Part shown: one piece after another, positions 59,611 to 63,179 of the stretch
Numbering within the stretch: position 1 is the stretch's first letter
Layout: every line of letters begins with the position of its first letter
Program-made: the position numbers and the translations under genes
The notes under the pieces: generated by a model
Seen by the model: the letters and a program-made list of their open reading frames with translations, nothing else
What the model was told of the DNA's origin: nothing
Database searches by the model: none
Source: Alphaproteobacteria bacterium
GTDB taxonomy: Bacteria; Pseudomonadota; Alphaproteobacteria; UBA828
Direction of reading: 5' to 3'
Assembly: GCA_965220745.1 (NCBI GenBank)
Contig: CBDCQT010000013.1
Coordinates: 384,001-448,000 of the forward strand
Length of the DNA stretch: 64,000 nt

Positions 59611-59634
59611 GGGGATTACAAAGGCTGGTTGACA
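59611..59634 (+). repeat. Left terminal inverted repeat
   Basis: GGGGATTACAAAGGCTGGTTGACA. Confidence 0.95.
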
Positions 59635-59657
59635 TTCCGGCCCGGACTCGCTAAGTT
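59629..59657 (+). promoter_or_regulatory. Candidate transposase promoter with its -35 inside IRL
   Basis: TTGACA (59629-59634)-N17-TAAGTT (59652-59657). Confidence 0.65.
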
Positions 59658-59693
59658 CTATCAACCTATCCGTATCGGAAATGGAGACAGGAC

Positions 59694-60680
59694 ATGGCCC
59701 GCAAGGCGCCCGGCAAATCTCACCGCGAGGGACTGACCATCGTCGAGTTAGTGGACATGTTCCCGACCGAAGAGGCCGCCACGACATGGTTTGAGGATAC
59801 GATCTGGCCCGACGGCCGGCATTGCCCCAAGTGTGGCTCCGAGCGCACAGGCAAGGCGAGCCATGCCAGGATGCCCTATTGGTGCACGGACTGCCGGAGC
59901 TACTTCAGCGTCCGTACGAACACCCCCATGGCCCGGTCGAACGTGCCCCTGCGCAAGTGGGCCATTGCGATTTACCTGTGCCTGACGAGCCTCAAGAGCG
60001 TCTCCAGCATGAAGCTCAAGCGTGACATCGGAGTGTCGCAGCCCACCGCGTGGTTCATGCTCCAGCGTATCCGGGAGGCTTGGGCGGAAGACGACGATGA
60101 CGAGCTCGATGGCCCGGTAGAGGTCGATGAGACCTACATGGGAGGCGAGCGCAAGAACATGTCGATCGCCCGGCGCAAGGCACTCCGCGAGGCGAACACG
60201 GGGCGTGGTTCTGTCGGCAAGACGGCCGTTGTGGGCATCAAGGACCGCGAGAGCGGGGAAGTCCGTGTCGAGGTCGTATCGAGTGTCGACGGCAAGACCT
60301 TGCAGGGTTTCGTCCGCGAGAACACAGAGGCCGGCGCCAAGGTCTATACGGACGAAGCATCGGCTTACAAGGGACTGGCGCGGGACTTTGACCATGAGGG
60401 CGTGCGCCACAGCGTCAGTCAGTACGTCCGGGGGCAAGCCCACATCAACGGCATGGAATCGTTCTGGTCAATGCTCAAGAGGGCGCATGACGGCACGTTT
60501 CACAAGATCAGTCCCAAGCACCTGCAACGCTACGTTTCGGAGTTTGCAGGCAAGCACAATATCCGGGACTCAGGAACGCTTGCGCAGATGCGGGACACTG
60601 TCGCCCGTATGGTTGGCAGGAACCTTTTCTACCGGGACTTGACCGCCGACAACGGACTGTCGAACGCGGGCCGGTCGTAA
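59694..60680 (+). CDS. IS1595-family transposase
   Basis: Zn ribbon CPKC...CTDC, HTH (SSMKLKRDIGVSQPTAW), VEVDETY, YTDE..AY, HINGMESFW, KHLQRYVSEF; GGAG RBS. Confidence 0.96.
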   Translation: MARKAPGKSHREGLTIVELVDMFPTEEAATTWFEDTIWPDGRHCPKCGSERTGKASHARMPYWCTDCRSYFSVRTNTPMARSNVPLRKWAIAIYLCLTSLKSVSSMKLKRDIGVSQPTAWFMLQRIREAWAEDDDDELDGPVEVDETYMGGERKNMSIARRKALREANTGRGSVGKTAVVGIKDRESGEVRVEVVSSVDGKTLQGFVRENTEAGAKVYTDEASAYKGLARDFDHEGVRHSVSQYVRGQAHINGMESFWSMLKRAHDGTFHKISPKHLQRYVSEFAGKHNIRDSGTLAQMRDTVARMVGRNLFYRDLTADNGLSNAGRS

Positions 60681-60776
60681 AGGTTCAACCCGGCGAAAAA
60701 GGGCTTTGGCCAGCTTTTCCGGGGTTGCTCCGACAAGGTGAACTTTCGGGTCTAGCATCGGAACGCCACGGGTCAT
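60570..60776 (-). CDS. Small hypothetical protein (68 aa) overlapping the transposase 3' end in antisense
   Basis: AAGGAG RBS 8 nt before ATG 60776; MTRGVPMLDPKVHLVGATPEKLAKALFRR... Confidence 0.55.
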   Translation of the reverse strand: MTRGVPMLDPKVHLVGATPEKLAKALFRRVEPLRPARVRQSVVGGQVPVEKVPANHTGDSVPHLRKRS

Positions 60777-60792
60777 CGATTCGACTCCTTGC

Positions 60793-60820
60793 TTGACGAA
60801 AGGAAGGAACACGGTAATTT
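60793..60820 (+). promoter_or_regulatory. Candidate promoter for the leader plus micropeptide transcript
   Basis: TTGACG-N16-TAATTT. Confidence 0.45.
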
Positions 60821-60854
60821 CGCCCAAGTGGCCGCGACGAATCGCGGTGACCCG

Positions 60855-60888
60855 AACGAAAGAGCCCCCCGCTGGAGGCGGGAGGCTC
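60855..60888 (-). terminator. Rho-independent terminator
   Basis: 11-bp stem (60862-60872 / 60878-60888), 5-nt loop, U-rich tail on the minus strand. Confidence 0.7.
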
Positions 60889-60942
60889 GATCAAAAGGGT
60901 CTGGTGTTGACCTGGAGAGGCGCACCAAACGGGCGTCAGAAC
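60855..60942 (-). ncRNA. Candidate antisense small RNA of about 85-90 nt
   Basis: Promoter TTGACA (60976-60971)-N16-TAGGAT (60954-60949); hairpin UUUGGUG/CACCAGA with a CUCC loop; terminator GAGCCUCCCGC-CUCCA-GCGGGGGGCUC-UUUCGUU. The stem irregularities are G-U wobbles only on the minus strand. Confidence 0.6.
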
Positions 60943-61006
60943 GCGGGTATCCTACCGACTCCCGCGAGCCTGTCAAGTGCGCTCTCCGAACGAAAGGAGA
61001 GCCAAC

Positions 61007-61081
61007 ATGGCTATCCCCTATCCTGTTCCAAAACAACCGAAACCTCCACATGTCCCGTGGCCGCCAGAGCCATGGTGTTAG
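61007..61081 (+). CDS. Candidate 24-aa proline-rich micropeptide MAIPYPVPKQPKPPHVPWPPEPWC
   Basis: AAAGGAGAG RBS shortly before ATG 61007, sequestered in a GCTCTCC/GGAGAGC hairpin; followed by a strong hairpin at 61091-61121. Too short for the ORF track. Confidence 0.55.
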   Translation: MAIPYPVPKQPKPPHVPWPPEPWC

Positions 61082-61089
61082 TCGATCTT

Positions 61090-61130
61090 GCCCCCGGTGG
61101 GTCTGCATGACTCGCCGGGGGGGGGGGGGC
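61090..61130. terminator. GC-rich hairpin with a G13 run between convergent cargo ORFs
   Basis: CCCCCGGTGGGTC-TGCAT-GACTCGCCGGGGG; G run at 61117-61129. Confidence 0.55.
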
Positions 61131-61360
61131 TACCAAGCTTTGGTGCTTATGGTGGGAGACGTAGAGCGCTCTTCAGGCCAAGAGGCGGTCACAGTCTCTT
61201 GGTCTGTATCCACGTTCTCACGGACGAGCTCGCTTCCGTCCGGGAAACGATACGTAAGGGTCTTTGTGACATACTCTGCCTTGCGGGCAACGCCAAGCCA
61301 GAACAGCACGCCGCGCGCGCCGTTCGCGACCCTCAGTTGCAATCGCTCGGCAATGCTCAC
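61130..61360 (-). CDS. Hypothetical cargo protein (76 aa)
   Basis: GTG start; TLTYRFPDGSELV resembles TTTYREQPDGSRIV in the 61898-62230 ORF. Confidence 0.5.
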   Translation of the reverse strand: MSIAERLQLRVANGARGVLFWLGVARKAEYVTKTLTYRFPDGSELVRENVDTDQETVTASWPEERSTSPTISTKAW

Positions 61361-61361
61361 G

Positions 61362-61443
61362 ATCCATCAACCTATCCGTATCGAATCCATCAACCTATCC
61401 GTATCGAAAAAGCTATCCGTATCGAAAAAGCTATCCGTATCGA
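61362..61443 (+). repeat. Four-copy tandem array with core CTATCCGTATCGA (2 x 23 bp plus 2 x 18 bp)
   Basis: ATCCATCAACCTATCCGTATCGA at 61362-61384 and 61385-61407; AAAAGCTATCCGTATCGA at 61408-61425 and 61426-61443. ATCAACCTATCCGTATCG also occurs at 59660-59677. Confidence 0.95.
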
Positions 61444-61579
61444 ATTGTTGCACAGATACTCCGACAAGGCTACCCTCCTTCCCTGCGTGCGGTTCGGCGA
61501 GGGCGGGCAGGAGCGCCCCACGCCTTGATTACCGGGCGCTCCAGGCGGGGTGCTGTCCCTGTACACGGCACCCCGCCGT

Positions 61580-61879
61580 TCATTCCTTGTCGGTGCCTGT
61601 TCCGGCCGCGTGCATTCTGCCGGCAATGCGGACCGGCGTGGGAGAGACGACCTCCGCCCCGCCGTCTATGTGGATGTGGAACACTCCGCCTGGGGCGCGA
61701 AAGTCCTGATAGGTTGCGCCAGGCGCCAAGTTGATTTGTACCTGCGGCGGCGACTCTCGTTGCTCCCGCAGCTCGGCAAGCTCTTTCTCCAATTGGGCAA
61801 TTCGCTTGGGCGCGGTAAGCATAGCGCTCACCCTTCCCCACCCAACGCGGAGCAACTCGACAGAAAACCACGATTCCAT
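61580..61879 (-). CDS. Hypothetical cargo protein (99 aa) with a short coiled coil and conserved C-terminal motif
   Basis: RIAQLEKELAELREQ; ends PVRIAGRMHAAGTGTDKE. Followed by hairpin GGCGGGGTGCTGT/ACGGCACCCCGCC at about 61544-61577. Confidence 0.65.
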   Translation of the reverse strand: MESWFSVELLRVGWGRVSAMLTAPKRIAQLEKELAELREQRESPPQVQINLAPGATYQDFRAPGGVFHIHIDGGAEVVSPTPVRIAGRMHAAGTGTDKE

Positions 61880-61897
61880 CCACGCATCATACTCTTC

Positions 61898-62230
61898 CTA
61901 CTCCTTGTCAGAAACCTTGTCAGTACCCGTGCCGGTCACATGCATTCTGCCGGCAAGACGCATAGGCTTGGCGAGCGTGGTCTGAGTGACGATCCGCGAG
62001 CCGTCCGGTTGCTCCCGGTAGGTGGTCGTGTCGTTCAAGCGGACCTCGGGGCCGAGGACCGACTTGGGTTTTCTCTTGCGGTCTATCCAGACACATACGC
62101 CCATGCCCACAAGGGCCAAGACGATGACGGCTATCCATATCCCTACGGACCAATGGGCCGTGAAGATATCCATCATTGCGCCGGCCCCCAGATCGAGGGC
62201 GAAAAAGCAGACTGCGAAATACCTAGCCAT
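61898..62230 (-). CDS. Hypothetical membrane cargo protein (110 aa), probably leaderless, with conserved C-terminal motif
   Basis: Hydrophobic N-terminal half then RKRKPK; ends PMRLAGRMHVTGTGTDKVSDKE. ATG lies 6 nt after the predicted -10 box. Confidence 0.65.
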   Translation of the reverse strand: MARYFAVCFFALDLGAGAMMDIFTAHWSVGIWIAVIVLALVGMGVCVWIDRKRKPKSVLGPEVRLNDTTTYREQPDGSRIVTQTTLAKPMRLAGRMHVTGTGTDKVSDKE

Positions 62231-62236
62231 TCTGCG

Positions 62237-62264
62237 ATCATATCGATTCCCCCGGTCGTGTCAA
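62237..62264 (-). promoter_or_regulatory. Candidate inward-facing promoter with its -35 inside IRR
   Basis: TTGACA (62264-62259)-N16-TATGAT (62242-62237). Confidence 0.65.
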
Positions 62265-62282
62265 CTACTCTTTGTAATCCCC
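62259..62282 (-). repeat. Right terminal inverted repeat
   Basis: TGTCAACTACTCTTTGTAATCCCC. Confidence 0.95.
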
Positions 62283-63179
62283 CTCTGCAACACGCGCGAG
62301 GAGATGGTCACGGAGGCGCGCCGCGAGATCAAGGACGGCGTCGACATCGTGAAGGTGGCCGGCGACGGCGACGTGCTCACCGGCGAGGCGGAGCTTGCCG
62401 GCAGCATCGGGCTCGACGACCTGCGCGCCATCGCCGAAGTCACCCACCGTCTCGGTAAGGTCTGCACCATCCACGCGCGCTCGGGCCGCGCGGCGGCCGA
62501 TGCCATCCGCGCCGGCTTCGACTGGATCATCCACGGCTCCTACATGTCCGACAACGATCTTGACGTGCTCTTCCGCAACCCGACGCCGCTGATCCCGACC
62601 TTCTCGCTGCTGGCGAACACCCTCGAATGGGGCCCGGACCTCGGCTGCTCGGGCTTCATCCTCGACGCCTACAAGGATGAGGTCGAGCGCCTTGCCAGCG
62701 TCGTCTCGCGAGCCCATGCCGAGGGAATCACTATCATCGCCGGCACCGACAGCGGCCAGGGCTCGGTGCCCTACGGCGAATGGCACGCGCGCGAGATGGA
62801 GCACCTGATGACCTATGGCGGCCTGAGCGCGGTGGAGGCGATCCGCGCGGGTACCGCTAACGCGGCGCTGACGCTCGGCATGGAGGACGAGATCGGTACC
62901 TTGGAGGAAGGCAAGCTCGCCGACATTCTGGTGGTGGATGGCGACCCGCTCGCCGATATCGCCGTGCTGCAGGACCGGGAGCGCCTCGCGGTCGTGATGA
63001 AGGACGGCGCAGTGGTCGACACAGAGGCGCCGATCCCCGAGCCCGCGCGCTACAACTGGGAAAAGCCCATGCTCTACTGGGAGGATCCGCGGATGCCGAC
63101 CCAGAGCTTCGTGCGCGAGCACGCGACCAGCAAGCCGCGCTGGATGCAGCAGGAACGCCGTCTCGACGCAGCGGAGTAG
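62283..63179 (+). pseudogene. Amidohydrolase, 3' part (begins with the right TSD copy)
   Basis: LCNTREEMV...VDIVKV, TIHA, WIIHGS, AGTDSG, GKLADILVVDGDPL. Removing the IS plus one TSD restores one 1401-nt frame (466 aa). Confidence 0.9.

Follow-up and report, generated by a model that had tools for sequence, protein, structure and literature searches.

The window, a stretch of 64,000 nucleotides from an alphaproteobacterium of the UBA828 lineage (contig CBDCQT010000013.1, positions 384,001 to 448,000), carries an insertion sequence (IS) of the IS1595 family, and the far end of this element holds a small open reading frame (ORF), ORF110, that appears to be a fixed-slot gene with its own promoter-like site, not arbitrary cargo. 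The element spans 59611-62282 (2672 bp), and ORF76, ORF99, ORF110 and a candidate small RNA all lie within it. An IS1595 element carrying passengers is known; what is new here is that the ORF110 family matches nothing named and that it keeps a fixed slot. The whole account put forward below, which we hold to be rather probable, is that of a passenger-carrying IS with a fixed-slot ORF110 family, a leaderless inward promoter, a mosaic ORF99, and a self-associating cytoplasmic beta module.

The slot is recognized by its position. Seven of the eight distinct genes with readable DNA start about 50 nt inside the transposase-distal terminal repeat and read inward, the exception being ORF99. The seven comprise five clear family members, one case with a relic repeat and one ORF99-type gene; they are ORF110, the L020/G030 gene, G045_157 (in two places), G045_154, G040_169, the L046 gene, and G414, which has a degraded repeat. 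Alignment of these ends (alignment A5) reveals a recurring promoter layout, in which the inner end of the repeat reads TTGAC(A) and is followed by 16-17 nt, (T/C/G)ATGAT, 6 nt (8 in one case), and the ATG. In ORF110, the -35 of the promoter-like site lies inside the right inverted repeat. A -10 ending 6-8 nt before the ATG implies a leaderless mRNA, so that the ORF110 transcript would start at or next to its ATG. The slot gene and the transposase gene converge in each complete element that was read, those of the window, L020 and G045. The transposases of these elements are mutually only 75-77% identical, which makes the association an old one. A scan for the repeat-proximal promoter pattern returned 24 stretches, 21 of which are chance matches with no IS repeat upstream. 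At the level of literature listings and abstracts, no description was found of a conserved, repeat-proximal, apparently leaderless small membrane-protein gene in IS1595 elements.

Residues 29-47 of ORF110 are hydrophobic (Kyte-Doolittle mean 2.75 over 19 residues) and have a K/R-rich C-terminal flank. A word-indexed protein search found nine homologues and ORF110 itself among 18 candidates, and a profile search gave 15 clusters at E<=1e-3 among 1.84 billion representatives, ORF110 itself scoring E 2.5e-41. Members range from 75 to 174 residues and are all built alike. The N-terminus forms one or two hydrophobic helices, or a coiled coil instead in P0009 and P0017, and is followed by a K/R-rich stretch; some relatives carry an anchor and a coiled coil together ahead of the common C-terminal part. 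The core is nearly invariant, reading LGPEIRLNDTTTYREQPDGSR(I/V)VTQTTLAKPVRI(S/A)G with 18 invariant columns (alignment A2), and can also be written PEIRLNDTTTYREQPDGSRIVTQTTLAKPVRI.G. It is followed by a Gly/Thr/Ser-rich segment, often with GGSA(T/S)L, and by a usually acidic terminus. The pattern E.R..TTTY.EQ..GSR.VTQTTLA and then PVRI.G, used to judge the presence of the core, is found in ORF110; ORF99 has PVRIAG and the tail only, and ORF76 has TYR.PDGS..V only. A "long-core" branch, LPDGTN(I/V)V.MADG..RLALPVR, occurs in two genes of G045 and also in G040 and G414. An extra C-terminal helical domain after the tail, AREIW...WAYWAF..RLEE.GRG...EDIDPT.EI.AT.K.W, was seen in P0003 and in L029 686-1441 (G414), and gave no Pfam match above threshold.

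The core bears the mark of strong purifying selection. Over 36 codons, the ORF110 core and the L020 gene differ at a proportion of 0.53 of synonymous sites (pS) and 0.108 of non-synonymous sites (pN). The G045 pair behaves in the same way, with differing N-terminal halves and a conserved stretch in the last 63 codons (pS 0.46, pN 0.095). Of 26 sequences scanned, 17 have a hydrophobic segment, and in 13 of these the last such segment is followed by 3-7 K/R residues, with 0-1 before it. By the positive-inside rule, this K/R-rich flank would place the conserved part in the cytoplasm. There it is probably tethered to the membrane, or brought into multimers by a coiled coil. Alternating short polar and hydrophobic runs around PDG and PVRI.G turns suggest a few beta strands, and the size of the conserved part suggests that it is too small for an enzyme.

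The family is without a name in the resources searched. A cluster look-up of seven homologues gave no names, and Pfam, NCBIfam and PHROG gave no match above a curated threshold, the sub-threshold matches being to hydrophobic and coiled-coil models only. The best hit of A3 among PDB sequences had an E of 2.4, and no PADLOC model was matched by more than one of 23 family members (best E 0.0029). Neither ORF110 nor G045_157 had a match in plasmid records, and ORF110 had none in phage records. A scan of metagenome contigs with A2 matched 44 pattern stretches, of which none was confirmed. No family match was found to the toxin-antitoxin kind, and most elements hold one gene only.

ORF110 and ORF99 both end in P(M/V)R(L/I)AGRMH(V/A)(T/A)GTGTDK. 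This shared ending had been singled out in a first-pass annotation, made from the letters of the window, whose coordinates and quoted endings for the two ORFs, both on the minus strand, proved correct. Its count over the 13 codons of AGRMH..GTGTDK was reproduced codon by codon, with 7 nucleotide differences, 5 of them synonymous (CAT/CAC, GGC/GGA, ACG/ACA, GGT/GGC, ACT/ACC) and 2 residue-changing (GTG/GCG, ACC/GCC). Across the 17 codons of P.R.AGRMH..GTGTDK there are 12 differences, eight at codon position 3, three at position 1, and one at position 2; assuming equal chances, the binomial probability of at least 8 of 12 at position 3 is 0.019. In frame, the 17 codons give pS 0.577 and pN 0.118 (Nei-Gojobori), corresponding to 7.5 synonymous versus 4.5 non-synonymous changes and a pS/pN of 4.9. 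Both wrong-frame controls contain a stop and reverse the ratio (pS/pN 0.188/0.274 and 0.091/0.297). By BLASTP, ORF110 and ORF99 match at E 2e-8 over the last 29 residues only, and their tail DNA is 77% identical over 57 nt. The tail thus appears to be conserved at the level of the peptide and not of the DNA, as that annotation had proposed, with both copies apparently held by purifying selection. A recent DNA repeat was rejected because the synonymous divergence is too high. An export or sorting signal, export being one of the roles earlier considered for the tail, was also rejected as disfavoured by the predicted cytoplasmic topology (the K/R-rich flank of 3-7 residues in 13 of 17 sequences). 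The last codons of ORF110 resemble the inverted repeat over about 11 nt, which is too short, and this was set aside.

The tag itself is local. When all 4.8 Mb of the genome are translated in six frames, GRMH..GTGT appears in ORF110 and ORF99 only, and own-genome searches with each of the two match itself and the tail of the other, and nothing else. The expectation that the exact AGRMH..GTGTDK motif would recur in other small ORFs was not borne out, neither in the protein-set search nor in the six-frame translation. The tag is a shortened, local form of the end common to the family, PVRI[SA]G[IV]G.T..GGSA[ST]L plus an acidic terminus. The idea of a modular family survives in that the relatives combine variable N-termini with a common C-terminal part, but what is conserved in the ORF110 family is larger than a 17-residue tag, comprising the tail and a core of about 35 residues. 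The membrane anchor noted in one of the proteins is borne out in ORF110 by its hydropathy. As for the coiled coil noted in another, a short one, KRIAQLEKELAELREQ, can be read in the sequence of ORF99, and the backing from searches consists of weak Pfam matches only.

ORF99 is a mosaic of an L046-type body and an ORF110-type tail. L046 was found via the promoter-pattern scan, and its repeat-proximal gene encodes an anchor, a coiled coil, a body, and an acidic tail. ORF99 matches it by BLASTP at E 9e-11 over coil and body, tail excluded (pS 0.92, pN 0.30). At its C-terminus ORF99 reads PVRIAGRMHAAGTGTDKE, a tail that is close to that of ORF110 and to the family-wide PVRI(S/A)G and unlike the one in L046. 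The L046 body does not match the ORF110-family profile significantly (hhalign E 0.17). ORF76, ORF99 and ORF110 as three clear paralogues were therefore rejected, the L046/ORF99 body having no detectable relation to the ORF110 core and ORF76 sharing a short motif only. ORF99 lies 18 nt behind ORF110 and is without the hydrophobic helix of L046. Upstream of its ATG (61879), TATGAT-N6-ATG is kept and aligns with the other ends; the repeat and the -35 are gone. The frame is open over 99 codons, with a GC content by codon position of 0.66/0.49/0.70, like ORF110 and the transposase gene and unlike overlapping frames. A database gene call, P0011, starts at MLTAPK (80 aa, 61580-61822), and a Shine-Dalgarno-like GGAAGGG precedes this start. 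In a set of 5.8 billion proteins, ORF99 found itself only, among 26 candidates.

Other small genes of this kind also share tails across different bodies. P0019 has a different core, and its tail is 67-73% identical to the G045 genes over residues 78-128 only. The tandem genes of G045 are two abutting element ends, each keeping its own repeat, and the history of ORF99 may have begun in the same manner. Two element ends would have become neighbours, as in G045 today, after which the inner repeat and the anchor would have been lost and the 3' end (about 29 residues) replaced by, or homogenised with, that of ORF110. About 7.5 synonymous versus 4.5 non-synonymous changes would have accumulated in 17 codons since, and this synonymous excess since the exchange suggests that both tails were kept. 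At the G045 locus (L026, G045:C7:221000-236000), a complete element is directly adjoined by a solo end, consisting of the repeat and ORF157, with a group II intron reverse transcriptase in the vicinity. The two G045 elements there have transposases that are 99.7% identical, and hold different repeat-proximal genes and cargo.

The mechanism that we propose builds on this anatomy. The unit 59611-62282 has jumped into an amidohydrolase gene as a passenger-carrying "transporter IS", and ORF110 would be transcribed inward from the promoter embedded in the repeat as a leaderless mRNA. The N-terminal helices would anchor the protein (in some relatives a coiled coil takes their place), and the basic stretch would keep the rest cytoplasmic. 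The beta-rich core of about 35 residues, followed by the Gly/Thr/Ser-rich tail with its usually acidic end, may together form a small self-associating beta module. The anchorless ORF99 could then co-assemble with the membrane-bound ORF110 via the matching tail. What the element would gain is a matter of low confidence, control of transposition and host-directed exclusion or defence being about equally probable. A more specific version describes a dedicated IS1595 far-end gene, whose leaderless product is a membrane-tethered cytoplasmic beta module serving the element, by controlling transposition or by protecting the host cell, and whose tail is an assembly code by which copies with matching tails (ORF110 with ORF99, or the G045 pair) form mixed oligomers; this version we regard as speculative and rather unlikely.

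Several observations weigh against the favoured account. Most elements carry a single gene of the ORF110 kind, which excludes a hetero-oligomer as the general way in which the family acts. The leaderless start has promoter geometry as its sole basis, and the selection test on the tail covers 17 codons. The repeat and promoter of the window recur in L066 (2743-2806), where what they drive is an unrelated protein, some 190 residues long and with a hydrophobic segment at the N-terminus, so the slot accepts other cargo; together with other IS1595 relatives in the same genome that lack the family and carry other cargo, this means that the family is not needed for transposition in general. The family is also rare. 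Of 49 genomes surveyed in the order, four carry it, and these belong to a single genus; among 400 further genomes drawn from the class there was one carrier, and among 400 drawn from the phylum there was none. The links between the three ORFs are thin in places. ORF99 matches the ORF110-family profile weakly, mostly from the tail (hhalign E 4.6e-4, 33% probability), and ORF76 shares the motif T.TYR.PDGS..V with the family in a weak alignment (hhalign E 1.3e-3, 19 columns, 18.5%). Additionally, the loss of anchor and promoter -35 in ORF99 also fits a gene on its way out.

This last point leads to a reading in which the shared tail is history only, with ORF99 a decaying remnant of a second element end, the 3' end of ORF110 gained by recombination, and the tail without a role. 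The absence from ORF99 of the anchor, inverted repeat and -35 that its relative L046 has would be explained, as would the lack of a homologue by word search, and the G045 tandem, two abutting ends each with its own repeat, indicates that such pairs arise without joint function. We consider this reading doubtful, because a decaying gene would be at odds with a frame open over 99 codons and a gene-like GC by codon position, with the excess of synonymous changes in the tail (7.5 against 4.5, and the opposite in wrong frames), with the divergence from L046 (pN 0.30, pS 0.92), and with a database gene call that has a Shine-Dalgarno-like site. The notion that the ORFs are chance open frames in GC-rich DNA, and their similarity a non-coding DNA repeat, is hardly credible. 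High-GC DNA does yield many long spurious ORFs on both strands here, and ORF76 is absent from the protein database, but ORF110 has homologues with a strongly conserved core and many synonymous changes, third-position bias is present, wrong frames contain stops, and the overlapping frames have a non-coding-like GC by codon position.

The remaining readings concern what the family does. As an accessory factor of the element, it would be membrane-tethered, bind the transposase or the ends, and tune transposition, target choice or copy number, with the inward promoter also directing antisense transcription at the transposase gene. The fixed position and dedicated repeat promoter across lineages with 75-77% identical transposases fit this, as does the fact that the gene and that of the transposase converge in the elements of the window, L020 and G045; accessory IS genes, often regulatory, are a recognized class (PMC3129680). 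Such a role is nevertheless quite unlikely, as other IS1595 relatives do without the gene, the L066 slot holds an unrelated one, no DNA-binding or known regulator domain was found in family library searches, and the G045 elements combine 99.7% identical transposases with different versions of the gene, which speaks against tight co-evolution with the transposase. Distinctly improbable, in our estimate, is a host-directed defence or exclusion cargo that blocks phage or incoming DNA or kills the infected cell, ORF99 being the soluble partner or sensor of ORF110. This role would suit a protein that is small and membrane-anchored, varies quickly in its N-terminal half and has a shuffled tail, many superinfection-exclusion and abortive-infection proteins being small membrane proteins on mobile elements, and methyltransferase genes adjoin the family gene in L020 and the repeat-proximal gene in L046. 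The searches gave it no backing, with at most 1 of 23 members matched per PADLOC model (best E 0.0029), none by PHROGs, and no match in phage or plasmid records, and most elements carry a single gene without a partner.

The reading of a fixed-slot family in a transporter IS can be set beside systems already described. Transporter IS of the IS1595 family were reportedly defined by Siguier, Gagnevin and Chandler in 2009. IS1595-family elements are taken to need the transposase alone, and their passengers are viewed as arbitrary. Accessory or regulatory IS proteins, or promoters embedded in element ends, are known from IS10, IS50, IS1 InsA, IS911 OrfA, and IS21 IstB. Like these, the window element has a second gene inside it and a promoter -35 in a terminal repeat; the ORF110 family differs in having no sequence relation to them, in being membrane-anchored and optional within its IS family, and in lacking a recognizable DNA-binding or ATPase domain. 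Phage Imm and Sie are small membrane proteins that exclude infection, and share with the ORF110 family a size of about 100 residues, an N-terminal anchor, carriage by a mobile element, and a rapidly varying sequence, whereas the family, known from sequence alone, has no PADLOC or PHROGs match and no relative in phage records. FtsB and FtsL have a bitopic layout of anchor, coiled coil and short C-terminal domain. The long forms in G045, G040, G414 and L046 have the same order of parts, but their predicted topology is opposite, with a cytoplasmic C-terminus, and there is no sequence similarity. An IS with passenger genes is termed a "transporter IS" of the IS1595 family (PMC3129680). With this class the window element shares a single DDE transposase with a zinc ribbon, short inverted repeats, an 8-bp duplication, and non-transposition genes inside; the difference is that here one passenger family recurs in a fixed slot, with a repeat-embedded promoter, across diverged elements.

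An uncharacterised small family that keeps its slot and repeat promoter across transposases of about 75% identity would be a new kind of element-linked function. Such a family would allow a simple test of what a membrane protein brings to a mobile element. The mosaic tails, in turn, point to module exchange between very small genes, mostly missed by gene callers and family databases. The practical weight is modest, the family being rare and the evidence coming from sequence.

By every feature tested, the window element is an ordinary IS1595-family member carrying passengers. It has an ISXO2/IS1595-type DDE transposase with an N-terminal zinc ribbon, inverted repeats and an 8-bp duplication, as expected of the family, and genes unrelated to transposition between the repeats, as expected of a transporter IS; the earlier proposal that the small ORFs are IS1595 cargo is thereby upheld. 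The element is inserted in an amidohydrolase gene and splits it. When 59611-62290 (the element with one copy of the duplication) is deleted, an open frame of 515 codons reappears from 58952 onward. The empty site is represented by one X3 contig (a run of the same sample, depth 2), in which 59602 is linked to 62283 through 8 shared letters. Short pieces of the transposase gene, ORF99, and ORF110, 100% identical, occur in a run from another study; the flanks are not among them. The full element is single-copy in its own genome. Its ends read GGGGATTAC, which is compatible with the end motif of the ISNwi1 subgroup, presumably ggnnatTAT. The inner TTGACA of the left repeat is a putative -35 of the transposase promoter; the putative -10, TAAGTT at 59652-59657, was placed by alignment with TATATT in L020 and G045, and was not reported by the promoter scan. 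The features are listed in Table 1.

Table 1. Features of the IS1595-family element and its insertion site (positions in the window)
Feature	Position	Strand	Remarks
Left target-site duplication copy CTCTGCAA	59603..59610	.	8 bp; identical copy on other side
Left terminal inverted repeat GGGGATTACAAAGG...TTGACA	59611..59634	+	24 nt; 88% complementary to right repeat
Single CTATCCGTATCG repeat copy	59656..59678	+	Between putative -10 and transposase start
IS1595-family transposase gene	59694..60680	+	328 aa; Pfam DDE_Tnp_IS1595 (PF12762) 2.4e-42, 145 bits (cut-off 27); Zn_ribbon_IS1595 (PF12760) 3.5e-8
ORF76, small passenger gene with TLTYRFPDGSELV	61130..61360	-	Homologue in second IS1595 element, same genome
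Four tandem copies of ...CTATCCGTATCGA repeat	61362..61443	+	Directly upstream of ORF76
GC-rich hairpin	61544..61577	.	Directly after ORF99 stop
ORF99	61580..61879	-	No membrane anchor; short coiled coil, L046-type body, ORF110-type tail
Shared tail codons of ORF99 PVRIAGRMHAAGTGTDK	61586..61636	-
ORF110	61898..62230	-	Membrane anchor, basic stretch, conserved core, tail; repeat-proximal family member
Shared tail codons of ORF110 PMRLAGRMHVTGTGTDK	61916..61966	-	Then 12-nt tandem duplication (VSDK)
Promoter-like site TTGACA-16-TATGAT	62237..62264	-	Scan score 11/12; ends 6 nt before ORF110 ATG
Right terminal inverted repeat	62259..62282	-	24 nt; pairs with 59611-59634
Right target-site duplication copy CTCTGCAA	62283..62290	.

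ORF76 is best viewed as a small passenger family of its own, perhaps with a hairpin in common with the ORF110 family. The TYR.(.)PDGS motif first noticed in the two genes is indeed common to them and, as T.?Y[RH].{1,2}PDGS in the six-frame translation of the genome, occurs nowhere else. A homologue of ORF76 lies at L032 3703-3939 (BLASTP 1e-22; pS 0.90 and pN 0.27 over 50 codons). ORF76 itself gave no candidate in the protein database and no PADLOC match, and ORF76-like matches in G041 (two places, one TGA each, no clear ORF) and G035 (E 0.009) were weak and were dropped. As a paralogue of ORF110 and ORF99, ORF76 was rejected. The CTATCCGTATCG motif, which looks like an operator or an iteron, co-occurs with the ORF76 family. 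Besides the single copy between the putative -10 and the start of the transposase gene and the four copies in front of ORF76, it makes up a 17-nt array in L032 (4278-4447, contig C5), with about 10 units that lie upstream of ORF84 and ORF78; the rest of the genome lacks the exact motif. The two elements differ in how the motif is oriented with respect to the transposase gene.

Other parts of the element also have counterparts. About 100 nt after the transposase stop are conserved between the window (60678-60776, minus strand) and L020 (6947-7050); the opposite strand reads MTRGVP(M/V)LDPKVHLVGATPEKLAKALFRR, without a Pfam match, and may be a small gene or a DNA or RNA signal. The candidate small RNA, at 60857-60969 on the minus strand, would be a further item of cargo. 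It has a promoter-like site, TTGACA-16-TAGGAT, and a GC-rich terminator of 11 bp with a T tail, and its fold z-score is -4.4. Its full-length match to Rfam ar14 is weak and below membership (22.6 bits, E 0.21, against a gathering score of 58.8). The 70 nt at 61509-61578, including the hairpin behind ORF99, are 87% identical to L031 4503-4571, on own-genome contig C3 beside an IS1595 relative, and may be a shared terminator or a small repeat element.

The second IS1595 passenger element of the genome, at L032 1952-4476 (C5:21000-28000), is 2525 bp long with 31-nt inverted repeats, and interrupts a Gabija defence locus. GajA (2.4e-174) breaks off where the element begins, at model position 461 of 570, and GajB (7.5e-156) is found beyond the element. 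Other IS1595 passengers in the genus, as read from their sequences, are predicted secreted proteins or lipoproteins (L033 1295-2611, L026 10870-12597, and L044 5035-5883). These share a C-terminal ...GNTFRETGGDDGRLTGIFTG..HEGAAGTLERSDL..AFGASR or similar, and one has a HELLH metalloprotease-like motif.

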